Shown here piece by piece: positions 1,600 to 57,736 of a DNA stretch of 64,000 bases (its first letter is position 1; every line of letters begins with the position of its first letter). The DNA is taken from positions 92,380 to 156,379 of the forward strand of contig JAZSGW010000013.1 of the NCBI GenBank assembly GCA_045532935.1, given 5' to 3'. A model generated the notes under the pieces. That model had not been told where the DNA came from and did no database searches. It was given only the letters and a program-made list of their open reading frames with translations. The translations under genes and the position numbers were made by a program. Source of the DNA: Acutalibacteraceae bacterium (GTDB lineage Bacteria > Bacillota > Clostridia > Oscillospirales > Acutalibacteraceae).

Positions 1600-4017
1600 G
1601 TGATAAGTTTGTATTACGATTTTAAAAAAGCAGAAAAAAAGTGGCAGGACAACTGGGAAAAAGCAGGTGTTTTCCACGCACAGGACAATTCCGATAAGAA
1701 AAAATTCTACGCTCTTGTAGAATTCCCTTATCCCAGCGGTGCAGGTATGCACGTTGGTCATATTAAGGCTTATTCAGGTCTTGAGGTCGTTTCACGTAAG
1801 AGAAGAATGGAAGGCTACAATGTGCTTTTCCCCATCGGCTTCGACGCTTACGGTCTTCCTACTGAAAACTATGCAATCAAAACAGGTATCCACCCTAGAA
1901 AGGTTACCGATGCAAACATCGAAAAGTTCACCTCACAGCTTAAGAGAGTAGGCTTCTCCTTCGACTGGAACAGAGTCGTTGATACTACTGAAGAGGGCTA
2001 TTACAAGTGGACGCAGTGGATTTTCCTCAAGATGTTCGAAAACGGTCTTGCCTTCAGAGATAAGACTCTCGTTAACTATTGTCCTTCTTGTAAGGTTGTT
2101 CTTTCGAATGAGGACTCACAGGGCGGTAAGTGTGACATTTGCCACAGTGATATTGTACAGAAGTCAAAGGACGTATGGTATCTTCGCATCACCGAGTACG
2201 CTGACAAGCTCCTTGAAGGCCTTAAAGAGGTAGACTACCTTCCTAATGTAAAGCTTCAGCAGGAAAACTGGATCGGCAAGTCAACGGGTGCTTTCGTAAA
2301 CTTTGATGTTAAGAATACAGACGAAACTCTTCGTATTTACACAACACGTCCTGATACACTTTTCGGTGTAACATTTATGGTTATGGCACCGGAGCATCCT
2401 ATGCTTGATAAGTATAAGGATATGATTACAAACTTTGATGCAGTTGAAAACTACAGAAGTGAGTGTGCAAAGAAGACAGAGTTTGAGCGTACACAGCTTG
2501 TCAAAGATAAGACAGGTGTAAAGCTTGACGGTTTCGTAGCTATTAATCCCGTAAACGGTAAAGAAATCCCCATTTTCATTTCTGACTATGTTATGATGGG
2601 TTACGGTACCGGTGCGATTATGGCTGTTCCCGCACATGACCAGCGTGACTATGATTTCGCTAAAGAATTCGGTATTGACATCATTGAGGTTATCAAGGGT
2701 GGCGACATCTCTGTAGAAGCATATACCGGTGACGGTGAGATGGTTAACTCCGATTATCTTAACGGATATAAGGACAAGAAATCTTCAATCGCAAGAGTTC
2801 TCGAAGAGCTTGAAAAGAAGGGTATCGGTGAGCGTGGCGTTCAGTATAAGATGAAGGATTGGGCATTCAACCGTCAGCGCTATTGGGGTGAACCTATTCC
2901 TATTGTACACTGTGAAAAGTGCGGTATGGTTGCTGTTCCTTATGAGGAGCTTCCTTTAAGACTTCCCGTGGTTGGGAATTTTGAACCCGGTCAGGACGGT
3001 GAAAGCCCTCTCGCAAAGATCGATGATTTCGTAAACTGTACTTGTCCCAAGTGCGGTGCTGCTGCAAAGAGAGAAACAGATACAATGCCCCAGTGGGCAG
3101 GTTCTTCCTGGTACTTCCTTCGTTATATAGATCCTCACAATGATAACGAGCTTGCTAATATGGAAAAGCTTAATTATTGGATGCCTGTTGACTGGTACAA
3201 CGGTGGTATGGAGCACGTTACCCGTCACCTTATTTACTCACGTTTCTGGCATAAGTTCCTTTATGACATTGGTGCTGTTCCTTGCGAAGAGCCATATGCA
3301 AAGAGAACGGCTCAGGGTCTTATCCTCGGTCCTGACGGTGTAAAAATGAGTAAATCACGAGGCAATGTTATTGATCCCAACGAGGTAGTTGATGTTTACG
3401 GTGCCGATGTTCTTCGTACTTATGTACTCTTTATGGGTGACTACGAGCAGGCGGCTCCCTGGTCAGAAAGTTCTGTTAAGGGTTGTAAGCGTTTCGTAGA
3501 CAGAATCTGGAATCTTCAGGAGATTCTTGTTGACGGCGACGAGTTCTCCAAGGAGCTTTCCTCCTCATTCCATAAGACAATAAAGAAGGTAACAGAAGAT
3601 ATTGAAGCTCTTAAATACAATACTGCTATTGCTGCGCTTATGACCTTGCTTAATGCAATTTATGCCAAGGGTTCTATCAATAAGGCAGAGCTTAAGGCAC
3701 TTCTTCTTCTTGTTAATCCTTTCGCTCCTCACGTGACAGAGGAAATTAACGAGCTTGTATTTGCAGGTAGTGAATTGCTTGCTATTACTGAATGGCCTGG
3801 TTTTGATGAAGCAAAATGCATTGATGATGAAATTGAAATTGTTGTACAGCTTAACGGTAAGGTAAGAGCAAAAATGAATGTTCCTGCTGACGTTGAACAG
3901 GCTGATGCGATCGCTATGGCGAAAGCTGATGAAAAGATTTCTGCAGAAATTGCAGGAAAAACTATCGTAAAAGAGCTTTACGTTAAGGGCAGACTTGTAA
4001 ATATTGTCGTAAAATAA
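1600..4017 (+). CDS. leuS: Leucyl-tRNA synthetase
   Basis: 805 aa with a GTG start. It has the class I HIGH-type motif (GMHVGH) and the KMSKS motif (VKMSKSRGN), plus a Zn-type CxxC pair in the editing/CP region. Confidence 0.97.
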   Translation: MISLYYDFKKAEKKWQDNWEKAGVFHAQDNSDKKKFYALVEFPYPSGAGMHVGHIKAYSGLEVVSRKRRMEGYNVLFPIGFDAYGLPTENYAIKTGIHPRKVTDANIEKFTSQLKRVGFSFDWNRVVDTTEEGYYKWTQWIFLKMFENGLAFRDKTLVNYCPSCKVVLSNEDSQGGKCDICHSDIVQKSKDVWYLRITEYADKLLEGLKEVDYLPNVKLQQENWIGKSTGAFVNFDVKNTDETLRIYTTRPDTLFGVTFMVMAPEHPMLDKYKDMITNFDAVENYRSECAKKTEFERTQLVKDKTGVKLDGFVAINPVNGKEIPIFISDYVMMGYGTGAIMAVPAHDQRDYDFAKEFGIDIIEVIKGGDISVEAYTGDGEMVNSDYLNGYKDKKSSIARVLEELEKKGIGERGVQYKMKDWAFNRQRYWGEPIPIVHCEKCGMVAVPYEELPLRLPVVGNFEPGQDGESPLAKIDDFVNCTCPKCGAAAKRETDTMPQWAGSSWYFLRYIDPHNDNELANMEKLNYWMPVDWYNGGMEHVTRHLIYSRFWHKFLYDIGAVPCEEPYAKRTAQGLILGPDGVKMSKSRGNVIDPNEVVDVYGADVLRTYVLFMGDYEQAAPWSESSVKGCKRFVDRIWNLQEILVDGDEFSKELSSSFHKTIKKVTEDIEALKYNTAIAALMTLLNAIYAKGSINKAELKALLLLVNPFAPHVTEEINELVFAGSELLAITEWPGFDEAKCIDDEIEIVVQLNGKVRAKMNVPADVEQADAIAMAKADEKISAEIAGKTIVKELYVKGRLVNIVVK

Positions 4018-44255: not shown

Positions 44256-44463
44256 CTATCGTTAACCCTATGAAGCTGTCGGAATCAAACAGAAACCGAT
44301 AGTGGAGGAGGCTCTGGAGAAGTCCATTAAGTTGGGTGCCCAAGGTGCAAGGTGAAACATTTCACTGAATCTCTCAGGCAAAAGGACAGAGCAGAAGATA
44401 TAACTGTATTTTCTAGCTTTTCTTTGTTTTCAGACCGCCTCTTTTCAGGGGCGGATTTTTTTG
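44256..44463 (+). promoter_or_regulatory. Glycine riboswitch (single aptamer plus 5' accessory stem-loop) with terminator expression platform
   Basis: The aptamer at 44312-44391 is CUCUGGAGAAG...GCCCAAGGUGCAAGG...AAUCUCUCAGGCAAAAGGACAGAG. It matches the glycine aptamer consensus (CUCUGGAGAG / GCCGAAGGAGCAA / CUCAGGCAAAAGGAC). An upstream stem-loop CUAUCG...CGAUAG lies at 44256-44305. A terminator CCGCCUC/GGGGCGG plus U7 lies at 44434-44463. Confidence 0.85.
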
Positions 44464-46756: not shown

Positions 46757-46784
46757 TTGACATTTATTGTCTTTGTGTTATAAT
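46757..46784 (+). promoter_or_regulatory. Sigma-A promoter for tRNA-Pro
   Basis: TTGACA, 16-nt spacer, TGtTATAAT (extended -10), about 18 nt before the tRNA 5' end. Confidence 0.75.
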
Positions 46785-46802
46785 ATCAAAGTCGTCAGAA
46801 AT

Positions 46803-46879
46803 CCGGGTGTGGCGCAGCTTGGTAGCGCGCTTGACTGGGGGTCAAGAGGCCGCAGGTTCAAGTCCTGTCACTCGGACCA
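46803..46879 (+). tRNA. tRNA-Pro (anticodon GGG), CCA encoded
   Basis: I folded the cloverleaf by hand. Acceptor CCGGGTG/CACTCGG (one G.U), D arm GCGC-AGCTTGGTA-GCGC, anticodon arm CTTGA-CTGGGGG-TCAAG (U33, GGG, G37), T arm GCAGG-TTCAAGT-CCTGT, and 3' ACCA. Confidence 0.9.
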
Positions 46880-46886
46880 GTCGAAA

Positions 46887-46931
46887 ACCGTAACCTTAGA
46901 GAAATCAAGGGTTGCGGTCTTTTTATTTTTT
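46887..46931 (+). terminator. Intrinsic terminator after tRNA-Pro
   Basis: ACCGTAACCTT/AAGGGTTGCGGT (two G.U pairs) followed by CTTTTTATTTTTT. Confidence 0.75.
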
Positions 46932-46988
46932 AAATGCGTCATATTATCTCACTTTATCTTTTTCGACTGCATACGGAGGAGTTGCATT

Positions 46989-48296
46989 ATGACCACTGCT
47001 GACTGGGTAAAAAAATTTGGAAATAATTTTTTGATTACCCTAACGAATGAAGAGCGAAGATATTTAGGTCTCTCTGACCTGTCTCATGATTGGGATAGTT
47101 TAGTATTTTACAGCAAAACAAATCTGTGGTATACAAGAGTGACCGCTTTTTTTGAAGGTAACACTATTGTTAAAGTGATAAGTGAAACCAAGCGAGTTCT
47201 GGATAATGGTACTGCAAATTATGAAGGTTACGTAGAATACGATACAAAACTGGACACTAACGAGAGAAAACAACTACTCCCGCTTACCACCCGTGGAAAG
47301 CTTAAGCCTCTGTCCGTCTCCAACATCAATGCCGTTACACCTTTTGGTTGCAGATTTTCTATTGGCTACGAATCCGGAAAAGATACAAGCTTGCGGCTAA
47401 ACAATCCTCGCGTCAATAAAGAGTTCCCCATCGGTGAATGGGACGCAATAGCAGCAATCAAATCCGAACACGATTTCCATGCTTTTATGAACACCTACAT
47501 TTCCACCTGCCGGAACGATTATTTTGACAAGCTCCAAGTCTTCAAAGATGCTAAGAAGGTTACCGTTAAATATAAGCCCGGCGATATTTTTCGCATGGAA
47601 TTTGATCGGACACGTTACTGTTATGGAATCATCACCGGAATAATCGAAAAACTGAAAACTATGCCGGAGCTACCTGAAAAACACAGCTTGCGGCAGTTGA
47701 TGATGGTCCCCATTATGGTGCGCCCTTATCAGCTGATCACACACGATCCTGACCTAAAGTCAGATGAACTGTCCCATGTTCCTCTGGGGCGTGTGCAAAT
47801 CGTAGGTGATAACGACATCATCTGGGGGACGCACACAATCGTTGATCACAAGCCTCTCGTCCCTGATGATTTAGAGTTTAATTTTGTCTGCACCAAAATC
47901 GTATCCCACAATCAGCATAACACGCTGTTTACGCAAGATATGTTTATGCACGATGGTCTGATTCCACAGCAGGAGTACATGCTCTACATTGAGTGGGGCT
48001 TCACGCGGACAAGTCTGCGCTATGAGCAATTGTCGGACAAATTAAAAACTTTTTTAGCTGACTATAGTTCTCCTCATGGTGGAGTTTCTATGGCTATCGA
48101 TCCGCGCTCAGCTGTTCCTGACGAAAAATATCGTCAACATTATTCCTATCAGAAGAATCTTTTGAATCCCGAAAACCACGAGATACTGAGCGAAATATTT
48201 ACTTGTCTGGGTCTGAATGCAGATACCACATTCGATCAGTTCGCAGAGAAGTTTTGCGGCCTAACCCGTAAGAAGATCATTTCCTGTATGAAATAA
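46989..48296 (+). CDS. Hypothetical protein, compositionally atypical (possibly an immunity-protein-like fold)
   Basis: 435 aa starting at MTTADW with a GGAGGA SD. The ORF-track extension back to 46767 reads through the tRNA. I recognise no catalytic motif. KPGDIFRMEFDRTRYCYGII vaguely resembles polymorphic-toxin immunity families. Confidence 0.6.
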   Translation: MTTADWVKKFGNNFLITLTNEERRYLGLSDLSHDWDSLVFYSKTNLWYTRVTAFFEGNTIVKVISETKRVLDNGTANYEGYVEYDTKLDTNERKQLLPLTTRGKLKPLSVSNINAVTPFGCRFSIGYESGKDTSLRLNNPRVNKEFPIGEWDAIAAIKSEHDFHAFMNTYISTCRNDYFDKLQVFKDAKKVTVKYKPGDIFRMEFDRTRYCYGIITGIIEKLKTMPELPEKHSLRQLMMVPIMVRPYQLITHDPDLKSDELSHVPLGRVQIVGDNDIIWGTHTIVDHKPLVPDDLEFNFVCTKIVSHNQHNTLFTQDMFMHDGLIPQQEYMLYIEWGFTRTSLRYEQLSDKLKTFLADYSSPHGGVSMAIDPRSAVPDEKYRQHYSYQKNLLNPENHEILSEIFTCLGLNADTTFDQFAEKFCGLTRKKIISCMK

Positions 48297-48390: not shown

Positions 48391-49191
48391 ATGAGTTTTT
48401 TAAAAGGTAAAACAGCTATAATCACCGGCGCAGGATTCGCTGCGCTTTCAGACGGTAGATGCGGTTCTATCGGTTATGGTATAGCGACTGCTTATGCAAA
48501 AGAGGGGGCTAACCTCGTAATAACCGGTCGAAACGTATCAAAACTTGAAAAAGCAAAGGAAGAGCTCGAAAAGCTTTACGGCATCAAGGTTCTTGCTCTT
48601 CAGGCTGACATCTCCGAAGGAGCTGACAACGAAGCAATCGCAAAGGGTGTTGCTGAAAAAGCTGTGGCAGAATTTGGCAGAATTGACGTTCTTATTAATA
48701 ATGCACAGGCTTCAGCTTCAGGCGTTACCATTCAGGATCATACAACAGAGCAGTTCAATCTTGCGATGTATTCAGGTCTTTATGCAACCTTCTATTATAT
48801 GAAAGCTTGTTATCCTTATCTTAAGGAAACACAGGGCAGTATCATCAACTTTGCTTCAGGTGCAGGTCTTTTCGGCAATTACGGTCAGTGCTCTTATGCT
48901 GCTGCAAAAGAGGCTATCCGCGGACTTTCAAGAGTTGCAGCAACCGAGTGGGCAAAAGACGGCATCAACACAAACGTTGTTTGTCCTCTTGCCTGGACAG
49001 CACAGCTTGAGCAGTTCCAGATGGCTTATCCCGATGCTTTCAAGGCAAACGTTAAGATGCCTCCTGCAGGTCATTACGGTGATTCAGAGCTTGAAATCGG
49101 TCGTGTATGCGTTCAGCTTGCTTCACCTGATTTCAAGTATATGAACGGTGAAACACTTACACTTGAAGGTGGTATGGGCCTTCGTCCGTAA
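48391..49191 (+). CDS. Short-chain dehydrogenase/reductase (SDR) family oxidoreductase
   Basis: 266 aa. The TGAG...G cofactor motif carries an insertion. NNAQ, and the catalytic S...YAAAK. Confidence 0.8.
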   Translation: MSFLKGKTAIITGAGFAALSDGRCGSIGYGIATAYAKEGANLVITGRNVSKLEKAKEELEKLYGIKVLALQADISEGADNEAIAKGVAEKAVAEFGRIDVLINNAQASASGVTIQDHTTEQFNLAMYSGLYATFYYMKACYPYLKETQGSIINFASGAGLFGNYGQCSYAAAKEAIRGLSRVAATEWAKDGINTNVVCPLAWTAQLEQFQMAYPDAFKANVKMPPAGHYGDSELEIGRVCVQLASPDFKYMNGETLTLEGGMGLRP

Positions 49192-49209
49192 AAGTCAATA
49201 TAAACTGTC

Positions 49210-49245
49210 TGAAAGGTTGTCAGTTACGGCAACCTTTCATTTTTC
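49210..49245 (+). terminator. Intrinsic terminator after the SDR gene, overlapping the 3' end of the convergent methyltransferase ORF
   Basis: 10-bp perfect stem TGAAAGGTTG/CAACCTTTCA followed by TTTTT. Confidence 0.75.
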
Positions 49246-50056
49246 TGAACACATCAAGCATATGAATAGACATACCTACACAATCCTCACGTTCGCAAAG
49301 AACGGAAAGAAATTTCATATACTCCTCAAATTCACGGTCACTTAAATCATTGAATTTGTCATCAAATATGTAAGACAGCATATCGACACCGACAAAGTGA
49401 AGTCTTGTAACATTGTGACTTTCCATAAGCCTATCAATATCAGCTTTACGGTACAGCTCAAATATTTCCTCGGGTGCAGAAACTGTATGATAATCTTCTT
49501 TGATAAGACCTTTTTCTAAATAATCAAGTACGATGTTTTTATAAAAAAACTTATAAATTGAGGTATCATTATTACAGTAAGAAGCGTAAATTACACCATC
49601 TGTTTTTGCTAATCTTATTGCTTCGTCAAGAGCCTTATGCTTATCTTCATCAGTAAAAAGATGATACATGGGACCTAACAGTAATACAATGTCATAAGTA
49701 TCACTTTCAAATTCAGACATATCGCAGGCATTGCCTTCATAAATCTTGATATTGTGATTGGGTTTGACTTTTTTCTCCATAATTTCAATGTTATGGGGAA
49801 CAAGCTCAACCGCAGTAACATCATAACCCATTTCAGCAAGTGCGAGGGAATATCTGCCCGTTCCTGCACCTATTTCAATTATTTTTGCACCGGGTGTGAG
49901 ATACTTTTCAACATATTTCATTGTTGTAAGATACTCCGGCATTCGGCTTTTACGCATCAGTCTGCCTTCTTCATCGTAGTTATTGTAAAAATCAATAACA
50001 CTGTTTCCTGTTGTTACAGGTTCGGATTTCTTTTTGAACAGTTCTGAAAGTTTCAT
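49220..50056 (-). CDS. Class I SAM-dependent methyltransferase
   Basis: 278 aa. Motif I IIEIGAGTGRYS, an acidic post-I residue (VELV), and the motif II region DIVLLLGP. The AGGAGG SD directly follows a terminator-like hairpin. Confidence 0.8.
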   Translation of the reverse strand: MKLSELFKKKSEPVTTGNSVIDFYNNYDEEGRLMRKSRMPEYLTTMKYVEKYLTPGAKIIEIGAGTGRYSLALAEMGYDVTAVELVPHNIEIMEKKVKPNHNIKIYEGNACDMSEFESDTYDIVLLLGPMYHLFTDEDKHKALDEAIRLAKTDGVIYASYCNNDTSIYKFFYKNIVLDYLEKGLIKEDYHTVSAPEEIFELYRKADIDRLMESHNVTRLHFVGVDMLSYIFDDKFNDLSDREFEEYMKFLSVLCEREDCVGMSIHMLDVFRKMKGCRN

Positions 50057-50067
50057 AAAAACTCCTC

Positions 50068-50116
50068 CTAAATAAAAAATTAACGGTGTAAGCTTATCTG
50101 AAAAGCCTACACCGTT
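50068..50116 (-). terminator. Strong hairpin plus U-tract between the glycosylase gene and the methyltransferase SD (attenuator 2 / operon terminator)
   Basis: In the minus-strand RNA: a 15-bp stem UAACGGUGUAGGCUU/AAGCUUACACCGUUA (one G.U), loop UUCAGAU, then A-UUUUUU-A-UUU running straight into AGGAGG. Confidence 0.75.
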
Positions 50117-50141
50117 ATAATCATATCGTTATAAAAATACA

Positions 50142-50243
50142 GTTACGTATCCGAAAATGAATATATAGGTATAGACCTGCAGCCATAATATGGTGCAAGC
50201 CAAAGCATATACATTTCTGTTTTGTTTGAAAGATATGCGTTCA
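50142..50243 (-). promoter_or_regulatory. Candidate leader ORF 2 (33 codons, TTG start; or 23 codons from the internal ATG at 50213)
   Basis: GAGAGG SD (50258-50253) 9 nt before the TTG. Peptide MNAYLSNKTEMYMLWLAPYYGCRSIPIYSFSDT. Its codons 15-18 contain GGCUUGCACC (50200-50191), which is complementary to the terminator 5' arm. Confidence 0.4.
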
Positions 50244-50286
50244 AATCAGTTTACCTCTCTACTGTACTTTTCGTAAATATATCACA

Positions 50287-50778
50287 TCATTGTTCTGTTG
50301 TCAAGTTTTTAATTAATCCCCACGCCACAACAAGCCTATCAACACTCCAACCCGCATTGGCAGGTGAGGTTGAGGGCAGACAAACAGCCTCTCTGCCGAT
50401 TTTGTCACGGATATACTTGTTGTAATACTTTTCGGCGGTTTTGCCGTTGACGAAAATCTGCCTGATGTCAGCGTTTTCAAGTATCTCTGTAAGGTCATTT
50501 GCGACCACATTTTTTATTGAACTGTCAGAGCTGCCCGTTATATCACAAGAGGCGATTACGTCCCACAATGCAATATGATTTGCGTGCAGAAAGTCACTTT
50601 TCTCCTCAATGGTTACAGGTGTATCAGCACCCATAACGGCAGAAACAACTTTCCAGAATCTGTTCTGTGGATGGCCGTAGAAAAACATCTGCTCACGGGA
50701 TTTCACCGACGGAAAACTACCAAGAATAAGTACTTTTGAGTTTTTGTCATATAGGGGCGGGATAGGGTGTTTAGGCAT
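50287..50778 (-). CDS. UDG-superfamily DNA-deoxyinosine (hypoxanthine) glycosylase-like protein
   Basis: 163 aa. LILGSFPSVKSREQMFFYGHPQNRFW and LPSTSPAN match the family-6 HDG-type pattern as I remember it. Confidence 0.7.
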   Translation of the reverse strand: MPKHPIPPLYDKNSKVLILGSFPSVKSREQMFFYGHPQNRFWKVVSAVMGADTPVTIEEKSDFLHANHIALWDVIASCDITGSSDSSIKNVVANDLTEILENADIRQIFVNGKTAEKYYNKYIRDKIGREAVCLPSTSPANAGWSVDRLVVAWGLIKNLTTEQ

Positions 50779-50779
50779 A

Positions 50780-51271
50780 TTATATACTCCTCATAAATTC
50801 TTTAACCTGCCGTTTTGTTTTTAAAACAACAGTTTTATCTTGGTACTTATCTGCAATTTCAGCATAATAGTCCCGTCTTTCCTTGTTTCTGCAACCGAAA
50901 AGAGTAAACTTTACAAACCACCAATTCATATCGTTGGCGTAACCGTCTTGTCTGCGGCTCTTTGTTCGTTTAACCGCACGAAAAAAGCAGGTCATTCTCG
51001 GAAGCTGAAGCAAGATTATTTTATCTGCCTTTTGCAGTCGCTCATCTATCATCAGGTATGTATAGTAGCCGTCAATAATCCAATCTTCTTGCGCCATAAA
51101 GTCTGCAACTATGGGCAGTACGACAGAATCGTCAATCGGCTTCCATTCCTTGTCCCACTTGACATCATCAAGGTGAAGGACGGGGATATTTTTCTTTTCA
51201 GCTATGTAGTCAGACAGATATGTTTTACCGCTTCCGGCATAGCCTAAAACTGCGATTTTCATTTCCTTCAC
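50780..51271 (-). CDS. Adenylate-kinase-like P-loop NTPase ('topology modulation protein' family)
   Basis: 163 aa. Walker A GYAGSGKT near the N-terminus. Same fold family as the 52944-53450 gene. Confidence 0.7.
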   Translation of the reverse strand: MKEMKIAVLGYAGSGKTYLSDYIAEKKNIPVLHLDDVKWDKEWKPIDDSVVLPIVADFMAQEDWIIDGYYTYLMIDERLQKADKIILLQLPRMTCFFRAVKRTKSRRQDGYANDMNWWFVKFTLFGCRNKERRDYYAEIADKYQDKTVVLKTKRQVKEFMRSI

Positions 51272-51291
51272 CTCTTTCAGATATCAGTTTA

Positions 51292-51843
51292 TTATAAATA
51301 CTTCTGCATATAAAACAAATCCTGATAAGTTTCGTCTTTCAACTTGCATATCTTTGGCTTAACTGCAACAGTTTTAAAACCGAATTTCTCATACAGAGCC
51401 TTCCCTCTCTCATTGCCTTCAAGATATTCGAGTTCAAGGATTTTAGTGCCTTTGTGTTCTTTAGCAATTTTAATAAGCTCACTGAACATTGCAGAACCGA
51501 TACCTATGTTCCAATAATCTTTCAGAATAGCAATTCCGATACCTGCTCTGTGAGAAGTTTTCATATCATTAAAAAATGTAATATCGCAGGACCCGACAGC
51601 TTTACCGTCAATATAACAGGCTATTATAAGATTGTGTTCTGATTCTCGGTTACCGGAAATCCATTTTTTCTCGTCTTCAACGGTAAAACCTTCCCAATCC
51701 TCAGTGCAACGTGAAAGAAACGCTGTTTCTCCACTAGCGGTTATGATGTTGTTAAGAAACATTTCTGCATCTTCGATTTCGGGTGTTTTTAATATTGCGT
51801 GTATGCCGTTTTTCAGTGTAATTTCCTTTGCTTTAAATATCAT
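51292..51843 (-). CDS. GNAT-family N-acetyltransferase
   Basis: 183 aa. Acetyl-CoA motif WNIGIGSAMFSELIKIAK and C-terminal YEKFGF. Confidence 0.8.
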   Translation of the reverse strand: MIFKAKEITLKNGIHAILKTPEIEDAEMFLNNIITASGETAFLSRCTEDWEGFTVEDEKKWISGNRESEHNLIIACYIDGKAVGSCDITFFNDMKTSHRAGIGIAILKDYWNIGIGSAMFSELIKIAKEHKGTKILELEYLEGNERGKALYEKFGFKTVAVKPKICKLKDETYQDLFYMQKYL

Positions 51844-51844
51844 A

Positions 51845-52951
51845 TCATTTCACCTCGATAGCAATAAAAGGAACTGTCATTTCTTCTTTAACAAGGCCTG
51901 CATGACCTCCGATAGGTTCAAAATCCGAATGCTCATAATTTAGTATCACATTACTTGTAGCAACAGCTAAATAGTCGCCTATAAAATCTTTAGTTTTTGG
52001 GTGTGCAGTGCCATAACCCAAAAGATTTTCTGCAAAAACCTCTTCTTTTGTCATAAGTCTGAATGAATCACCGAACACCTTGTTGAATTCCTCTTTAAAT
52101 GCTTCGGCTTTTCCGTCTTTAATGAAAAGGCTCAAGGCTCTCGGTTCAACAGAAGGTGGCATTTTAAGCATATCCTTAAGCACGGGATAATCCTCTAAAT
52201 ATTCATTTACACAATCAATTTGTCCATGGTCAGCTGTAATAATGATACGAGAGTTTTTCAGCTTTTTACATAGCTTTTCAACCTCTCTGTTTATCATCTC
52301 AACTTCGTTCTTTGCTTCTACACTGTGTACGCCGTGTATGTGCATTATATTATCGGGTTGATGCCAATAGGTGTATATGTACTTCTGCTTTCTTCTTTTT
52401 GACAGTCTGCAAACTGTTTTACAAATGTGATGAACACTTTTTGAACGGTATTTTGAAAAAGCAGATACACAATAAGCTGTCTTTCTGCCCCTGACCTCTT
52501 CTATTCTTTGGAAAATCTTTTTATACGGTATGTATTTAAACGGAACATTATATCCTGCAGCAGGCTCACCGTTTCGTTGCAAAGCATTTTTAAAGACAGT
52601 GACATTTTCTCCTATTTCATCAAAATATAAGTCCCAACCAATCCAGCCGGTTTCAATAGGAGAATAACCGCTTTCGATTGCAGTCAGGGCAGCAACAGTC
52701 GTTGACGGATATACGGATGATATGTCTGTTAAATGATGCTGTCTGAGGAAATCAGTTTCAGAAAGATGTTCCTTGATCACAGAAGCACCCATACCGTCAA
52801 AGAGCATCATTATTACGTTTTTATAGTTTTTATTTAATAGTTCATCAAACTCAGGTAAGCTCTTATGCTCGCAATCAGTAACACCGAAATACTTAAGCAC
52901 AGATGAAGCAAGAGACAATATGCTTCTGTCATAATCGGGATATTTAACCAT
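51845..52951 (-). CDS. Alkaline-phosphatase-superfamily protein (type I phosphodiesterase/nucleotide pyrophosphatase-like)
   Basis: Metal/nucleophile motifs LFDGMG, YPSTT and ITADHGQ. The start at 52951 (MVKYP) has AAGGAG 8 nt upstream and overlaps the preceding gene by 8 nt. Confidence 0.7.
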   Translation of the reverse strand: MVKYPDYDRSILSLASSVLKYFGVTDCEHKSLPEFDELLNKNYKNVIMMLFDGMGASVIKEHLSETDFLRQHHLTDISSVYPSTTVAALTAIESGYSPIETGWIGWDLYFDEIGENVTVFKNALQRNGEPAAGYNVPFKYIPYKKIFQRIEEVRGRKTAYCVSAFSKYRSKSVHHICKTVCRLSKRRKQKYIYTYWHQPDNIMHIHGVHSVEAKNEVEMINREVEKLCKKLKNSRIIITADHGQIDCVNEYLEDYPVLKDMLKMPPSVEPRALSLFIKDGKAEAFKEEFNKVFGDSFRLMTKEEVFAENLLGYGTAHPKTKDFIGDYLAVATSNVILNYEHSDFEPIGGHAGLVKEEMTVPFIAIEVK

Positions 52952-53450
52952 GAAGATTTCTCCTTGCATTTTCTATGTATTTATCTGCATCTTCTCTTGA
53001 TTTGAAAACTATCACTTGCTTTTCACTTTTGTATTTATCAATCAGTTCATAAATGTACGGCAATGTTTTTTCAGAAAATTCCTCGATAAACTTTCTGAAT
53101 TCGGGGTCTAATTCTGTCTCTATCCAGGGGAGATCATAACGACCTTTTCCGATTCGTTCAGTTGCACCCTGTAAACAGATTTCTGTAGGCAAATCAAAGA
53201 GGAAAACAGCATCACATTCCTTAAGTCGCATTTCTATTGTTCTTTTATAATTCCCATCAATAATCCATTTTGAAGTAGAAAAGATTTCTGTTATTCTTTC
53301 GTCAAATTTTTCTCTGGATATGTGAGTCTTATCGGGTTTATGCCATATTGCATCAAGATAATACAAAGGCAATCCGGTAAGTTTATTTAATTTTTCTGCA
53401 AATGTTGTTTTCCCTGAACCGGGACAACCAATTATAATGACTTTGTTCAT
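52944..53450 (-). CDS. Adenylate-kinase-like P-loop NTPase ('topology modulation protein' family)
   Basis: Walker A GCPGSGKTT. I prefer the start at 53450 (MNKVIIIG), which has AAAGG 7 nt upstream. The ORF-track start at 53465 has no SD. Confidence 0.7.
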   Translation of the reverse strand: MNKVIIIGCPGSGKTTFAEKLNKLTGLPLYYLDAIWHKPDKTHISREKFDERITEIFSTSKWIIDGNYKRTIEMRLKECDAVFLFDLPTEICLQGATERIGKGRYDLPWIETELDPEFRKFIEEFSEKTLPYIYELIDKYKSEKQVIVFKSREDADKYIENARRNLHG

Positions 53451-53483
53451 TTTACTGCCTTTCATATTGATAAGAAAATTTTG

Positions 53484-54128
53484 TTATTTTTCAGTGCTTT
53501 TGAGTATCATAAGCTGACTGGGCGGATAAGATAGCCACGTTATAAGATAAAGAACTCCAGCAATTTCTTCGGTGATAAAAGACATATGTCTCAGACCGAC
53601 ACAAATATCTCCGATAACAAATACTATAAAGCCAATCATCAGAATAAGATGTTTACGTGAAGGCTTTTGTATCTGCAGCTCAACTGCGTGTGCAATATTA
53701 ATGCCTATACACACTGCATAGGCAGCCGGAAGAATAATATTACCCTGAAAGCCAAGAATGGTAGTAATAAGACTCGCAGCAACGGCAGGTATTATTCTTT
53801 TAAGAAGCTCGGTGGAAATCTTTTTGTCACTAATATGTGCCAGATAAACAGTATAACATAATTGCACAACTATAAATACAGCGACACCGTATAGATATTT
53901 GTTAAGAAGGACGAGGAAAATGTCAGCAAGTAAAGTAAACATAAGACCGATACTGACAAACCGACTTTCTTTTTTATTAAAAACTGTAACGCCCGATAGC
54001 GTTACAAGTGCGCTTGCGGCGAATTTTAGAGGTCTTGAATCCCAAAGCGAAAAAATATCGCAGGTAAGATAGATGAGCATGAAAATACCGATTAATCCAT
54101 ACACAATATATTTAAAAGATTTTTTCAT
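53484..54128 (-). CDS. YhhN-family membrane protein (second paralogue in the window)
   Basis: 214 aa, about 7 TM. The C-terminal FIVFVIGDICVG motif is YhhN-like. GGAGG SD. Confidence 0.6.
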   Translation of the reverse strand: MKKSFKYIVYGLIGIFMLIYLTCDIFSLWDSRPLKFAASALVTLSGVTVFNKKESRFVSIGLMFTLLADIFLVLLNKYLYGVAVFIVVQLCYTVYLAHISDKKISTELLKRIIPAVAASLITTILGFQGNIILPAAYAVCIGINIAHAVELQIQKPSRKHLILMIGFIVFVIGDICVGLRHMSFITEEIAGVLYLITWLSYPPSQLMILKSTEK

Positions 54129-54164
54129 TTTAATCCTCCAGATTTTTATTGTGATAATCCTTTG

Positions 54165-54203
54165 AAAAAAGAAACGCGTCTCTGACCATGAAATCAGAAA
54201 CGC
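54165..54203 (-). terminator. Leader terminator (attenuator 1) upstream of the yhhN-led operon
   Basis: In the minus-strand RNA: a 10-bp stem GCGUUUCUGA/UCAGAGACGC (one G.U that would be an A-C mismatch in a plus-strand RNA), an 8-nt loop, then GUUUCUUUUUU. It lies about 25 nt before the GGAGG SD. Confidence 0.7.
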
Positions 54204-54225
54204 ATAAATCCGAATTAAAGAAGTA

Positions 54226-54282
54226 TCATTTGCAAACGGACAAAACAGTATCTGATTTCACAAAGCTGCTTTTCATCATCAT
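54226..54282 (-). promoter_or_regulatory. Candidate leader peptide ORF 1 (18 codons: MMMKSSFVKSDTVLSVCK)
   Basis: AGGTGG SD (54293-54288) 5 nt before a triple ATG. The ORF contains the antiterminator strand UGAAAUCAGA (54260-54251). Confidence 0.5.
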
Positions 54283-54313
54283 TTTGTCCACCTGCCTTTC
54301 AGTGATTTTTATC

Positions 54314-54342
54314 ATTATATCAATACTTTACGGTATTGTCAA
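54314..54342 (-). promoter_or_regulatory. Consensus sigma-A promoter of the attenuated operon
   Basis: On the minus strand: TTGACA (54342-54337), 17-nt spacer, TATAAT (54319-54314). It abuts the pyk stop codon. Confidence 0.8.
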
Positions 54343-55755
54343 TTATATATTTTCAATCTTAATAAGATTCGTGTTTCCTGACTGTCCTGTAGTTACACCG
54401 CCGGTGATGATAATTTTATCACCTTTTTCAAGGTTAAGAGCTGTTTTTGTCAGCTTCTTTGCTGTATAGAAAAGAACGTCTGCAGAGGGAAGTTCCTCAC
54501 ACATTACAGGTTTTACACCCCATGAAAGAGCAAGTTTCTGCCAGGTTTTTTCGTTGGTGGTAAGACCTACAATATCAACAGGGGAACGGAACCGTGAAAT
54601 CATACGGACCGTCTTGCCGGAAAGTGAGCAGACTGTTATCGCTTTGGCACCGACATCTATCGACATACCGCACGTAGCGTGCGAGATGGCATCAACGGTA
54701 TTTTGTATAACGAAATCTGTTTCTCTGAATCGTTTTATAAAGTTTATGTTTTTTTCAGTCTGATATGCTATTCTGGACATTGTTTCTACAGCAAGAACAG
54801 GATGTTTTCCAACCGCAGTTTCGCCTGAAAGCATTACTGCACTTGTGCCGTCATAAACGGCGTTTGCAACATCAGATATTTCTGCCCTTGTAGGACGGGG
54901 ATTTGTAATCATTGATTCGAGCATTTCTGTAGCGGTGATAACACGTCTGCCAAACAGGCGGCACTTTGTGATAAGATGCTTCTGTATTGCAGGCAGCTCT
55001 TCAAATGGGATTTCAACCCCCATATCACCTCTTCCTATCATAACGCCTTCACAGTGCTCCAATATCGAGTCGATATTATCAATGCCTGACTGGTTCTCAA
55101 TTTTTGCGAGAATACCGATGCCGGTAATGTTGTTTTCTACGAGAAAATTCTTTACATCGATAAGATCCTGAGCGCAGGAAACAAAGGAACAGGCAATGTA
55201 GTCAACATCATTTTTTGCACCAAAGATTATGTCGCTTTTATCCTGTTCGCTTAAATAAACCTGTTTGAGGACTTTTCCCGGGAAACTCATTGATTTTCTG
55301 TCGGAAAGTGTGCCTCCGTCAACAACAGTGCATACCGCTTCTGTATCAGTTACTTTCTCAACGGTAAATCTCATAAGACCGTTGTTTAGTAGAATTGTGT
55401 CGCCTTTTTCTAGATCCTTCATCATACCTTTGTAGTTTACAGAAACTCTCTCGCTATTGCCTATGATTTCATCGGTCGTAAAAGTAAAACGATCACCTGC
55501 AATAAGCTTTACGGAGTCTCTTTCGAAGGTTTTGATTCTGTATTCGGGTCCTTTGGTGTCGAGCATAATCGCAACAGGAAGACCAAGCTCTTTGCGTACT
55601 GATTTTATCATATTTATTTTCTCGAGATGTTCTTTGTGAGTTCCGTGGGATAGGTTAAGTCTTGCAACATTTAGCCCGGCAAGACACATTTTTCTGAATG
55701 TTGTTGTATCACTACAAGACGGACCTATTGTTGCAACGATTTTAGTCTTTCGCAT
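54343..55755 (-). CDS. pyk: Pyruvate kinase
   Basis: Motifs IVATIGPS, MLDTKGPE and MIGRGDMGVEIP. I prefer the start at 55755 (MRKTKIV) over the ORF-track start 10 codons upstream. Confidence 0.95.
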   Translation of the reverse strand: MRKTKIVATIGPSCSDTTTFRKMCLAGLNVARLNLSHGTHKEHLEKINMIKSVRKELGLPVAIMLDTKGPEYRIKTFERDSVKLIAGDRFTFTTDEIIGNSERVSVNYKGMMKDLEKGDTILLNNGLMRFTVEKVTDTEAVCTVVDGGTLSDRKSMSFPGKVLKQVYLSEQDKSDIIFGAKNDVDYIACSFVSCAQDLIDVKNFLVENNITGIGILAKIENQSGIDNIDSILEHCEGVMIGRGDMGVEIPFEELPAIQKHLITKCRLFGRRVITATEMLESMITNPRPTRAEISDVANAVYDGTSAVMLSGETAVGKHPVLAVETMSRIAYQTEKNINFIKRFRETDFVIQNTVDAISHATCGMSIDVGAKAITVCSLSGKTVRMISRFRSPVDIVGLTTNEKTWQKLALSWGVKPVMCEELPSADVLFYTAKKLTKTALNLEKGDKIIITGGVTTGQSGNTNLIKIENI

Positions 55756-55878
55756 AATCGAGTACCTTTCTATAAAACTATACAACCTTTCAATACATCT
55801 ATTTATATTATTATTTATTCTTTTACAAGATAATATTTATTATATATCCGATTTTTTGATTTTTATTTCTTTTAATTA

Positions 55879-55907
55879 TTGCATAGACGTTATTAAATTG
55901 GTATAAT
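55879..55907 (+). promoter_or_regulatory. Sigma-A promoter for the GH43-like gene
   Basis: TTGCAT, 17-nt spacer, TGgTATAAT (extended -10). Confidence 0.65.
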
Positions 55908-55935
55908 TTATTAAAACTATTAAGGAGATAATACA

Positions 55936-56865
55936 ATGCCATATCTTTTTACGCATTTCAAAGAAAAGCTTACTGTTGACGGTGAACAGGTTTATTTTTC
56001 TGTTAGTCGTGACGGATTTAACTGGGAACAAATAAATGGCGGGAATCCTATACTTGTAAGTAAAATGGGTTCCGGAGGCTGCCGCGATATAGAGATTGCC
56101 CGACTCAAGGACAACAGCTTTGTAATTCTGACAACTGATGAGTGTATAGTCAACCGCTTTGATGAAAACTATAATGTCAACTGGCAGGTAGTAAACCGCA
56201 CCGGCAGTAAAGGCCTATGTATGTGGAAAAGCAAGGATTTAATAAGCTTTTCCGAGCAACGGATAATCCCGATAGGAAGAGAGGATTTCGGATGTCTATG
56301 GGCACCTGAAATCATTTATGACGAAATAAACGACGAGTACGTGATTCATTGGGGCTCAACAGTTGCGCAGGATGACTATAGTCATATGTCAATTTATTAC
56401 AGTACCACAAAGGATTTTGAAACATTTACCAGACCGAAGCTCTTTTTCACGAAAGTTAACGAAATTCTTGACACTCATATTCGTAAAATCGACGGAAAAT
56501 ATCATATGTTTTATAAAAACGCAAACAATCCCGGTATGAATATGCACGCTGTTTCCGATGATTTATATGGCCCTTATCTGCACGATGAGGCTTTTGAGAA
56601 GTATATGGAAACCGTTGATAAAGCTAATTGCTTCGAAGCTCCTACGACTATGATTTTGCCCGACGGAAGATGGTGCCTTATGATCGACTTTTTCGGTTGT
56701 CCCAAACCTGAAATGGGATATGTACCGTTTATAAGCGAAAAGCCGGGGGACAGCAATTTCAAAAGAAGCGATGAAGCCTTTTCGTTCCCTTACGGCTTTA
56801 AGCATGGAGGTATCCTCGAAATAACCGATGAGGAATACGAGAGAATCAAAAAGTATTACAAATGA
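55936..56865 (+). CDS. GH43-like glycoside hydrolase (five-bladed propeller family)
   Basis: 309 aa. CRDIEI (like the catalytic RDP), LWAPEI and CFEAPT (like ExP) are spaced as in GH43. No signal peptide. Confidence 0.6.
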   Translation: MPYLFTHFKEKLTVDGEQVYFSVSRDGFNWEQINGGNPILVSKMGSGGCRDIEIARLKDNSFVILTTDECIVNRFDENYNVNWQVVNRTGSKGLCMWKSKDLISFSEQRIIPIGREDFGCLWAPEIIYDEINDEYVIHWGSTVAQDDYSHMSIYYSTTKDFETFTRPKLFFTKVNEILDTHIRKIDGKYHMFYKNANNPGMNMHAVSDDLYGPYLHDEAFEKYMETVDKANCFEAPTTMILPDGRWCLMIDFFGCPKPEMGYVPFISEKPGDSNFKRSDEAFSFPYGFKHGGILEITDEEYERIKKYYK

Positions 56866-57541: not shown

Positions 57542-57736
57542 AAAAAAATAAATCCCGCCGTGCCGTTCGTGATGTGTATAACCTGCCTCAATAGCAGGGT
57601 GGTGATAGCGAGACGGGTTCGCGCTCCCTTCGTCCGCAGAAGCGGGAGGTCTGCAATCCGCCGTCAAAGCATCTCTCCGTTTTATAACGTGTTGGGTTAT
57701 AACGATCACAGTTGTCGCACACAGCAGGAGTTATAA
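57542..57736 (-). ncRNA. Candidate structured sRNA, rod-like (6S RNA-like?)
   Basis: A segment at about 56% GC (98 of 175 nt counted over 57554-57728) sits in an AT-rich spacer. The 5' and 3' ends pair over about 30 bp in four helices, with G.U pairs that work only on the minus strand. An apical CCGC-UUCU-GCGG hairpin sits exactly at the midpoint. A 3' U-tract follows. Confidence 0.5.

Follow-up and report, generated by a model that had tools for sequence, protein, structure and literature searches.

In the E. coli trp, his, leu and thr leaders, a promoter is followed by a leader ORF, by the 1:2, 2:3 and 3:4 helices and by an intrinsic terminator. Leader-peptide attenuators that respond to antibiotics, in which a drug-stalled ribosome exposes the antiterminator, include those of ermK, tet(M) (orf12 of Tn916), vmlR, lmo0919 and msrD; the cat-86 leader encodes MVKTDKISS and its mechanism consists of hiding the cat Shine-Dalgarno (SD) sequence in a hairpin. 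We know of essentially no gene regulation that has been characterised in uncultured Acutalibacteraceae and other Oscillospirales. The bmrCD exporter genes of B. subtilis respond to antibiotics that target the ribosome, through ribosome-mediated attenuation (PMC4191407). The BmrB leader has 53 codons, with the terminator within the ORF; its efficient translation leads to termination, and slowed ribosomes lead to formation of the antiterminator (PMC4191407).

We analysed a leader on the minus strand of a 64,000-nt stretch of Acutalibacteraceae DNA (the window), for which ribosome-mediated attenuation had originally been predicted. From its sequence and that of its homologs, we lean towards regarding this leader as a candidate transcription attenuator of the leader-peptide (ribosome-mediated) type, one of a small mobile family that had not been catalogued before. 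All features of the window are on the minus strand, and coordinates are given in the direction of transcription.

Architecture of the leader and its operon

The pyk gene (PK and PK_C domains) ends in a TAA codon at 54345-54343. Directly after it, as the original prediction stated, the sequence contains a promoter with the -35 hexamer TTGACA (54342-54337), a 17-nt spacer ending in TG, and the -10 hexamer TATAAT (54319-54314), so that the TG-extended -10 element reads TGATATAAT (54322-54314). This was the only 12/12 promoter match between 49000 and 56000, and transcription is predicted to start near 54307. Near this promoter, and upstream of the structural genes, lies a short ORF with its own SD sequence and start, which were found where they had been described: AGGUGG (54293-54288), inside GAAAGGCAGGUGGAC, stands 5 nt before the consecutive codons AUG AUG AUG, and the 18-codon ORF reads MMMKSSFVKSDTVLSVCK followed by UGA (54282-54226). 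The 15-nt ribosome-binding site and ATG of this ORF are identical to those that start a real 107-aa HTH_3 repressor gene on five viral contigs (L040-L044).

An 8-bp helix had been proposed to bury this SD sequence and start codon. In the minimum-free-energy fold and its pair counts the helix, here called P1, was real but comprised 15 bp (54295-54281 with 54246-54232), and the segment GGACAAAA, formerly placed at 54290-54283, belongs at 54289-54282. The 5' arm of P1, GCAGGUGGACAAAAU (54295-54281), holds the SD sequence together with the A and U of the first AUG, and the 3' arm, GUUUUGUCCGUUUGC (54246-54232), begins at G54246, the third base of codon 12, extends to the end of codon 17 and specifies V-L-S-V-C. 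Read from the sequence, many of the P1 pairs are A-U or G-U.

The loop of P1 contains the 5' strand of the putative antiterminator, GUGAAAUCAGAUAC (54261-54248, codons 8-12). Within it, UGAAAUCAGA (54260-54251) exactly complements UCUGAUUUCA (54198-54189), and the flanking pairs that had been expected out to 54201 were also present, giving a duplex of 11 bp plus 2 bp (54261-54248 with 54201-54188) whose target is ten bases of the terminator 5' arm (54201-54192) and the terminator loop. The energy of this duplex was -15.5 kcal/mol, compared with -8.3 +/- 2.2 kcal/mol in dinucleotide shuffles of the ORF interior (p = 0.005). No bases are shared between P1 and the antiterminator, and it is possible that the two could form a pseudoknot and so permit read-through without any ribosome.

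An intrinsic terminator separates the leader ORF from the first structural gene. The hairpin and U tract that had been reported are there, but the stem has 14 pairs, G-U included, rather than 10 (54205-54192 with 54187-54174, loop UCAU, the whole hairpin occupying 54205-54174), and the distance from the leader stop codon to this stem is 20 nt instead of 22. The U tract, UUCUUUUUUC (54173-54164), is the predicted site of premature 3' ends.

The fold of the whole leader was better than that of shuffled sequences (z = -2.9; 1 in 200 as good). When the transcript was cut before the terminator 3' arm, it folded as the antiterminator (-24.7 kcal/mol), whether or not the start region was masked. When the complete terminator was present, it won at equilibrium for any masked ribosome position, and the switch must therefore be kinetic. 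Models could therefore not be told apart by masking ribosome positions in equilibrium folds. In the truncated folds, the freed 3' arm of P1 paired through its GUCCG (54241-54237) with the linker CGGAU (54212-54208); that this pairing might belong to the antiterminated fold is weakly suggested by these models and by an equivalent ACGGAU in the leaders L034 and L037.

Twenty-five nucleotides past the U tract, and outside the folded leader, is the SD sequence GGAGG (54139-54135) of the first structural gene, for which no covering hairpin was predicted. This gene, which encodes a YhhN-family membrane protein, occupies 54139-53484 with its SD sequence. In agreement with the six-gene operon that had been proposed, six closely spaced ORFs, with -26 to +20 nt between neighbours, occupy 54128-50287, the remaining five (53465-50287) encoding a P-loop NTPase, an alkaline-phosphatase-superfamily phosphodiesterase, a GNAT acetyltransferase, a second P-loop NTPase and a deoxyinosine DNA glycosylase. 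The first P-loop NTPase gave sub-cut-off matches to 'DNA topology modulation protein' models. Relatives have only the YhhN gene and the first NTPase gene, with or without the glycosylase gene.

Distribution of homologous leaders

Six other sequence types of homologous leader were found besides that of the window (nhmmer E-values of 1e-18 to 1e-54). Two of them, L002 and L003, stand upstream of a YhhN-family gene in two Acutalibacteraceae MAGs; L034, L037, L038 and L039 adjoin or lie near tnpV, with the leader following the tnpV gene. The original prediction had proposed looking for orthologous leaders and for covariation in them, and the same architecture does recur elsewhere, with compensatory changes in P1. 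The promoter, leader and terminator move as one block, and the module recurs at sites that have no pyk gene. The -35 element is retained as TTGAC(T/A) in L002, L003, L034, L037 and L039, and the extended -10 element of the homologs is TGATATACT or TGCTATACT.

An SD sequence and ATG follow within 15-25 nt of the terminator in four of the six variant types. In the window, L002, L003 and L039, the SD sequence of a co-oriented gene lies 15-25 nt past the terminator with no intervening promoter. In L034 and L037 there is a second promoter between the leader and the next gene, which is about 340 nt away. Genes for multidrug-type ABC exporters are found downstream of the leader in two of the tnpV elements: in L039 these are heterodimeric exporters like MsbA, BmrCD and Tet(46), directly after a 162-aa gene, and in L037 the exporter gene starts about 340 nt past the terminator, beyond the second promoter. 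In the L125 type, the leader is the very end of the shared sequence, and no gene remains there, as the ATG after the terminator runs at once into TAA.

The closest pyk-YhhN relatives have no leader and a pyk-YhhN gap of only 12-52 nt; as they have lost the leader, it is dispensable. The YhhN orthologs P0003, P0008, P0009, P0014, P0016 and P0018 showed no leader or only a remnant (L021, with TTGACT after the pyk stop codon), and the contigs of P0011 and P0012 break off within the leader or immediately past it. Plasmids in PLSDB gave no blastn match to the window and L034 leaders. A metagenome pattern scan gave one true match (L034) and one chance match (L033), and viral pattern scans gave chance matches (L035, L036), nothing, or the phage repressor ribosome-binding site already mentioned (L040-L044). 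No leader was detected by nhmmer in 80 viral loci with a distant TnpV (<=51% identity), or by a covariance model of the P1 region (R1) in the distant-TnpV viral loci L045-L104 and L110-L124, and this model found no further copies in the window, L001-L032, L034, L037-L104 and L110-L134. A match of R1 in L078 (E = 0.03) falls within the tnpV coding region and was rejected as chance.

Conservation of the leader elements

P1 was the best conserved feature of the leader. It was retained in all homologous leaders and was paired in 95% of alignment cells, compared with about 40% in slid controls, with some compensatory changes; two pairs were changed on both sides, from GC to UA in L125 and from AU to GC in L003. 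The terminator was conserved, or swapped for another terminator, in all homologs, and its stem in L003 carries a compensatory change from U-A to C-G. The leader interior was the least conserved part.

The SD sequence and ATGA were invariant across the leader alignment. Exactly 18 codons and the same stop position were found in five copies (the window, L034, L037, L039 and L002), which are all of the copies with an intact promoter and SD sequence, and one of the five stop codons has changed from TGA to TAA. The interiors of these ORFs were identical at just 8-24 of 36 bases, and none of the four divergent interiors contained an in-frame stop codon (joint chance of about 0.03), so that maintenance of the ORF across copies is only modestly significant. 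In L003, a +1 shift in an A run lets reading continue through the terminator. The C-terminal LSVC(K/R/D) of the leader peptide was conserved, but the P1 arm complementary to the SD sequence encodes exactly those residues, and this peptide end is therefore uninformative about peptide function. No leader-peptide family in NCBIfam or Pfam matched at E-values up to 10 when four of the peptides were searched, each extended by two in-frame upstream residues to reach the 20-aa minimum.

Within the ORF, the antiterminator segment UGAAAUCAG was retained in L034 and L037. The terminator of L039, AGGCAUCUCCG / CGGAGGUGCUU, is unrelated to that of the window, and at the same ORF location L039 has the antiterminator UGGAGG-GCC (codons 10-12 and the last base of codon 9), which pairs with the 5' arm of its own terminator (-13.1 kcal/mol, p about 0.05). 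When the loops were exchanged between terminator types, those of the window and L037 gave -12.6 to -16.6 kcal/mol with the type native to them and -4 to -7 kcal/mol with the L039 type, and the L039 loop gave -13.1 kcal/mol on its own terminator and about -6 kcal/mol on the other; each loop thus fits solely its own terminator type in the window, L037 and L039. The antiterminator was present and significant in the window, in L034/L037 and in L039, within a sample of about five independent variants and two terminator types.

No antiterminator was detected in L002 or L003 (-5.4 and -5.3 kcal/mol; p = 0.84 and 0.82), which still carry P1, the ORF or its remains, and a terminator of the window type; an alternative sought in these two leaders was only a weak 7-bp pairing, UGCAGA / UUUGCG (-7.5 to -9 kcal/mol). 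The L125-type copy combines a loop of the window type with a terminator of the L039 type, a mismatch (-4.5 kcal/mol), and has a 14-codon ORF. As its -35 box and SD sequence are degenerate, this copy may be dead.

Known RNA families and ligand-binding structures

As had been anticipated from the lack of resemblance to any known riboswitch class, a check against Rfam returned no family: the window leader had no match at the gathering score and only sub-threshold C/D snoRNA-like noise at E-values below 10, and the leaders of L034, L037 and L039 had no match. The snoRNA-like matches arise from UGAUGA...CUGA and were discarded. A kink-turn was also rejected, since both boxes are absent in L039. The leader alignment contained no conserved loop or bulge that might bind a protein or ligand. 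Loop sequences varied freely, which together with the absence of an Rfam match argued against a ligand-binding aptamer, and a riboswitch was rejected.

Proposed mechanism and its alternatives

In the mechanism that we propose, the consensus promoter would fire into a leader of about 143 nt with two alternative folds. The first would combine P1 with the terminator, the SD sequence and start of the 18-codon ORF being paired with codons 13-17; the second would be the antiterminator, with codons 8-12 on the terminator 5' arm and loop and the freed P1 3' arm on the linker. On a leader without a ribosome, P1 would close, the terminator would form and transcription would end at 54173-54164. During undelayed translation of all 18 codons, the P1 3' arm and the antiterminator strand would both be covered by the ribosome as the terminator is synthesised; on reaching UGA, the ribosome would extend to about 54213, before the terminator begins, and transcription would again terminate. 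Were a ribosome instead arrested at the start codon or on the first 2-3 codons, it would sit on the P1 5' arm and leave codons 8-12 bare, and the antiterminator would then capture the emerging terminator 5' arm, so that RNA polymerase would read into the YhhN operon. Geometry spoke against a signal given by a ribosome that pauses at the stop codon, and this was rejected: the antiterminator strand and its target would lie on either side of such a ribosome, with linkers of 0-1 and about 8 nt.

We infer from these sequences that the switch depends on a translating ribosome. Because read-through would need a ribosome held at the start, the likely input would be any agent or condition by which ribosomes are trapped during initiation or the early steps of elongation. 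Ribosome-targeting antibiotics are most plausibly the signal, by analogy with known systems and because ABC exporter genes lie downstream in other elements, and this is the least certain step of the proposal. A broader version is possible, and we put it forward tentatively: the leader may be a portable cassette that senses a start-codon-stalled ribosome, has spread on tnpV-type mobilisable elements among gut and rumen Clostridia, was also placed upstream of the chromosomal YhhN operon, and represents a new family of antibiotic-responsive attenuators reporting initiation-trapping drugs.

The architecture from which attenuation was originally predicted is real and recurs in homologs. That reading is nevertheless weakened by L002 and L003, which lack the antiterminator, by the frameshift in L003, and by the closest relatives, which are leaderless. 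Some of the same observations suit a genuine switch that responds to some factor other than a translating ribosome, for example temperature, an sRNA, a pausing polymerase or an RNA-binding protein, with an ORF that arises incidentally from an SD-like arm and the sequence complementary to it. P1 is conserved best, the conserved codons are exactly its arms, the frameshift is tolerated in L003, burial of the SD sequence and start by P1 would limit translation, and the A-U- and G-U-rich helix is like those of RNA thermometers. We nevertheless consider such an RNA-only switch unlikely, as five copies keep the 18-codon length and stop position despite very different interiors (the TGA to TAA change included), the SD sequence and ATGA are invariant, and the ribosome-binding site is the same as that of a real gene; nor is there a conserved loop or bulge for a protein or ligand, or an Rfam match.

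Less probable still is a stand-alone small gene, whose transcript of about 140 nt would act as a trans-acting sRNA or as the mRNA of an 18-aa peptide, travelling with tnpV elements and reaching downstream genes by leak-through only. This would be in keeping with the mobility of the block, with the further promoter and 340-nt distance in L034 and L037, and with the position of the L125-type copy at the end of the shared sequence; the interior, which would be the sRNA seed or the peptide, is however the least conserved part, the terminator-matched antiterminator would have no role, and a co-oriented SD sequence follows closely, without a promoter between, in the window, L002, L003 and L039.

That there is no regulated switch, the hairpin being the pyk terminator, the promoter a leaky, constitutive driver of the operon and the 10-nt complementarity fortuitous, seems similarly improbable even though pyk has no other terminator before 54174, relatives co-transcribe pyk and YhhN without a leader, and L002 and L003 lack the antiterminator, because the promoter lies upstream of the terminator, which its own transcripts must cross, the whole module recurs where pyk is absent, and the antiterminator, significant in three copies, changes together with the type of terminator.

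If the attenuator that we favour is real, the ribosome-sensing attenuators would gain a new family of leaders, found in uncultured Acutalibacteraceae and other Oscillospirales, and a stress-induced role would be suggested for the YhhN and P-loop NTPase genes, a pair that is poorly understood. As the cassette is portable, follows tnpV and has exporter genes downstream in two elements, the leader could serve in gut and livestock metagenomes as a marker of loci for inducible efflux or resistance. Its compact layout, in which the 3' codons of the ORF pair with its own SD sequence and start and the antiterminator occupies the loop, would make a tidy model for control of transcription by the first ribosome. 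The kind of mechanism is textbook, and the gain would therefore be incremental rather than conceptual.

Comparison with described systems

The leader differs from those of cat-86 and cmlA, which have a conserved N-terminal inhibitory pentapeptide and a hairpin that sequesters the SD sequence. Residues 8-11 of the window peptide, V-K-S-D, resemble the V-K-T-D of cat-86, a likeness that had been offered as speculation; they are internal rather than at residues 2-5, and homologs have MKSA, MTWR or AKNT instead. The SD sequence of the structural gene is free here, not in a hairpin, and an intrinsic terminator is used. With the leaders of ermK, tet(M), vmlR, lmo0919 and msrD it shares a short leader ORF and a terminator before a gene on a mobile element; unlike them, its peptide matches no NCBIfam or Pfam leader model, and the window has no recognised resistance gene directly downstream.

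The E. coli trp, his, leu and thr attenuators have the same layout, and in them, as here, the terminator is more stable than the antiterminator and the choice is kinetic. In contrast to those systems, the leader ORF has no run of regulatory codons for any one amino acid, none of the six operon products was assigned to an amino-acid biosynthesis family, and a ribosome stalled at the start fits the geometry better than one stalled late in the ORF.

The bmrBCD leader (PMC4191407), compared by description, has a short translated ORF upstream of the structural genes and terminator, antiterminator and anti-antiterminator folds, as the present leader would in the proposed mechanism, and two homologs of the present leader have BmrCD/MsbA-type heterodimeric ABC exporter genes downstream. 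The differences are that the window genes form a YhhN/NTPase/phosphodiesterase/GNAT/glycosylase operon with no exporter, and that the ORF, instead of enclosing the terminator in about 53 codons, has 18 codons and ends 20 nt before it. In addition, the anti-antiterminator of the present leader, P1, includes the leader's own SD sequence and start codon.

The leader and its operon

On the minus strand, the TAA stop codon of pyk (pyruvate kinase; PK and PK_C domains) at 54345-54343 is followed directly by the promoter of the original prediction, comprising a -35 box TTGACA (54342-54337), a 17-nt spacer ending in TG and a -10 box TATAAT (54319-54314), the sole 12/12 promoter match in 49000-56000. 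Also as predicted, the SD AGGUGG (54293-54288) lies 5 nt before AUGAUGAUG, where the triple-ATG leader ORF MMMKSSFVKSDTVLSVCK-UGA (54282-54226) begins. The minimum-free-energy fold (-39.3 kcal/mol, z = -2.9) contained a helix, P1 (54295-54281 with 54246-54232), that buries this SD and start, and a terminator (54205-54174) followed by UUCUUUUUUC. Both had been foreseen, but at 8 and 10 bp they were too short, as P1 has 15 bp and the terminator stem 14 pairs; GGACAAAA had been placed one nucleotide off, and the leader stop lies 20 nt from the terminator instead of 22 nt. Within the P1 loop, the antiterminator core UGAAAUCAGA (54260-54251) is, as claimed, the exact complement of 54198-54189, and flanking pairs extend the duplex to 11+2 bp (54261-54248 with 54201-54188). 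A search of Rfam gave no match at the gathering score, and at E < 10 nothing beyond sub-threshold hits to eukaryotic snoRNA, lncRNA and miRNA models plus a weak hit to one bacterial sRNA model, in agreement with the view that the leader lies outside the known riboswitch classes.

The six closely packed genes downstream (54128-50287, minus strand) encode, in order, a YhhN-family membrane protein, a P-loop NTPase matching 'DNA topology modulation protein' models below their cut-offs, an alkaline-phosphatase-superfamily phosphodiesterase, a GNAT acetyltransferase, a second P-loop NTPase of the same kind and a deoxyinosine DNA glycosylase. The phosphodiesterase, GNAT and second NTPase genes (50780-52969) were not detected in the related locus L018 (4642-5475), where the first NTPase gene and the glycosylase gene are just ~200 nt apart; from this comparison, the operon in the window seems to have acquired an insert of three genes.

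A second promoter-leader-terminator unit, not homologous to the first, was observed at 50081-50304 (minus strand). Its promoter (TTGACA-17-TATATT, an 11/12 match that includes the TG) falls within the final codons of the glycosylase gene. The ~199-nt leader, which had no match in Rfam, is far more stable than its shuffles (-55 kcal/mol, z = -5.4); it includes a possible 33-codon ORF starting with TTG and ends in a 15-bp terminator and U tract 25 nt ahead of a class-I SAM methyltransferase gene (50056-49220). The window also contains a glycine riboswitch aptamer (44304-44399, plus strand), a tRNA (46803-46876, plus strand) with an overlapping mechanical ORF (46767-48296) whose start is probably wrong, and a 6S RNA (57548-57733, minus strand).

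Distribution of the leader

Only 33 relatives of the YhhN protein were found in a large protein collection, and the ten orthologous loci that a genome scan yielded all belong to MAGs with the label Acutalibacteraceae, Oscillospiraceae or Clostridia. The leader is absent from the closest loci retaining pyk-YhhN synteny (L001, L015-L017 and L018-L020), where the gap between these genes is 12-52 nt. A remnant between pyk and YhhN in L021 (610-705) retains the -35 box, as TTGACT behind the stop codon of pyk, and a GCGUUUCUG/CAGAGACGC hairpin that is shortened and lacks a U tract, but has lost P1 and the ORF, suggesting that the leader was probably ancestral at this junction and has since been deleted in relatives. 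Clearly homologous leaders directly precede YhhN in L002 and L003, in a different upstream context. Two metagenome contigs with YhhN of this type break off within the leader terminator or shortly beyond it (L030 1-25, L031 1-48), and these breaks could mean that the leader occurs in several contexts in those samples.

A metagenome pattern scan identified L034, in which the leader comes after the mobile-element gene tnpV (PF14198). Looking up relatives of TnpV gave L037 and L038, with nearly the same leader as L034; L039, with the same P1 and ORF frame and a different interior and terminator; and eight contigs (L125, L127-L132, L134) with one common decayed copy. Full leader copies scored E = 1e-42 to 1e-54 in nhmmer, and the whole promoter-leader unit is portable between loci. 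No copies were found in PLSDB plasmids, in viral pattern scans or in 80 viral loci with distant TnpV, and a search with R1, a covariance model of the P1 region, which took in L045-L104 and L110-L124 of those 80 loci, returned none beyond those already known.

The eight contigs with the decayed copy share smpB, an SDH-protease/NfeD gene, tnpV and the leader (e.g. L125 5300-5620), and are identical as far as compared, to ~80 nt before this point. Among four compared further, L128 and L129 diverge from L125 and L134 right after GGAGGGGAGATATGTAATACGAA; the position resembles an element boundary or a recombination hot spot shortly beyond the downstream SD/ATG.

Conservation of P1 and the leader ORF

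Related leaders were checked for covariation in the predicted helices. In a seven-sequence alignment, 95% of P1 cells form standard pairs vs 38-44% with partners slid; in eight pairs the variation is confined to one side, and in two both partners differ (GC to UA in L125, AU to GC in L003). The terminator showed one clean compensation (U-A to C-G, in L003).

Wherever promoter and SD are intact, the ORF has exactly 18 codons and a constant stop position, as in the peptides of the window (MMMKSSFVKSDTVLSVCK, stop TGA), L034 (MMNKLYLMKSATVLSVCK, TAA), L037 (MMNKLYLMKSAAVLSVCK, TAA), L039 (MTMNLNLMTWRAVLSVCD, TGA) and L002 (MMWRVMAKNTNITLSVCR, TGA), while the 36-nt interiors agree at only 8-24/36 bases between copies; the joint chance of no in-frame stop in four such interiors is ~0.03. 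L125, with a degenerate -35 box and SD, has a 14-codon ORF. In L003 (5860-5900) the ORF is +1 out of frame in an A-rich run, AAAAGAAAAAAACC, which may reflect a miscounted homopolymer in the assembly or a genuine frameshift; removing one A gives a 19-codon ORF, MMWRVMKRKNHIALSVCRH. In five viral contigs (L040-L044), the leader's GAAAGGCAGGTGGAC-NNN-ATG also serves a real gene, for an HTH_3 repressor of 107 aa, as its ribosome-binding site, indicating that related hosts start translation at this sequence. That gene (e.g. L042 3023-3364) adjoins a Peptidase_M78 (IrrE/ImmA-like) gene.

A pseudoknot of P1 plus antiterminator might allow read-through without any ribosome. An RNA-only switch would draw on the conserved P1; set beside the constant ORF and its translation start, we regard such a switch as unlikely. 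That the unit is simply a stand-alone small gene is improbable, its interior being the part conserved least. The leader peptides matched no family in NCBIfam or Pfam. The conserved LSVC corresponds exactly to the coding content of the P1 arm that complements the SD, and so is no evidence for a functional peptide.

Pairing of the antiterminator with its terminator

The window duplex reaches -15.5 kcal/mol vs -8.3 +/- 2.2 in dinucleotide shuffles of the ORF interior (p = 0.005; ~0.01 for L037 on its own terminator). On the window-type terminator arm, the loops of the window and L037 score -12.6 to -16.6 kcal/mol, against just -4 to -7 kcal/mol on the arm of the L039 type. L039 has a different terminator (AGGCAUCUCCG-UAUUCU-CGGAGGUGCUU) and carries UGGAGG-GCC at the equivalent ORF position; its loop reaches -13.1 kcal/mol on its own arm (p ~0.05) and only ~-6 on the window type. 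This joint change is covariation of a whole helix. No antiterminator was seen in L002 or L003 (p = 0.84 and 0.82), and the L125 loop is mismatched to its terminator. The lack of an antiterminator in L002 and L003 would suit a leader that is no regulated switch at all, which the matched pairing in the window, L037 and L039 makes improbable.

Transcripts cut before the terminator 3' arm folded into the antiterminator in the window and L034/L037, and in L039 once P1 was masked. When the complete terminator was present it always won at equilibrium, so the choice between the two must be kinetic, as it is in the trp leader.

A model for ribosome-mediated attenuation

We favor, with some reserve, the predicted ribosome-mediated transcription attenuation: its elements were confirmed and recur in homologous leaders, but the antiterminator is missing in L002 and L003. 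With the ribosome absent, P1 would close and the terminator would form. A freely translating ribosome would cover codons 8-17 during terminator synthesis, and at the leader stop its front edge would be near 54213, short of the terminator, so that termination would follow. A stall at the stop codon was rejected as the trigger, since its geometry makes formation of the antiterminator unlikely. If the P site of a stalled ribosome were instead at codons 1-3, the ribosome would cover the P1 5' arm and leave 54261-54248 bare to capture the terminator arm, resulting in read-through, while the freed P1 3' arm would pair with the linker (GUCCG/CGGAU).

Such a switch would respond to agents that catch ribosomes during initiation or early in elongation. 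By analogy, ribosome-targeting antibiotics would be the leading candidate, given that L039 and L037 carry exporter genes and that BmrB offers a precedent (PMC4191407). In L039, the leader is followed by a 162-aa protein weakly similar to DinB_2 and a heterodimeric ABC exporter (595 + 607 aa) resembling MsbA, BmrCD and Tet(46); in L037, by a second promoter, a ~340 nt structured RNA and the start of an ABC exporter gene. This L037 region (3125-3470; promoter TTGCAC-17-TATAAT, long inverted repeats, terminator-like hairpin) had no match in Rfam and may be a second regulatory leader in tandem.

Comparison with known systems

The leader is proposed to work like the leader-peptide attenuators, among them trp-type leaders, BmrB-bmrCD, ermK, tet(M) orf12, vmlR and lmo0919. 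It is not of the cat-86 type, which is a translation attenuator. BmrB has 53 codons with the terminator inside the ORF (PMC4191407), whereas this ORF has 18 and stops 20 nt before the terminator, and BmrB is thus no homolog in layout. Three features set it apart from the attenuators listed: its anti-antiterminator holds the leader's own SD and start, its antiterminator lies within the enclosed loop, and its promoter-leader unit is portable as a whole.
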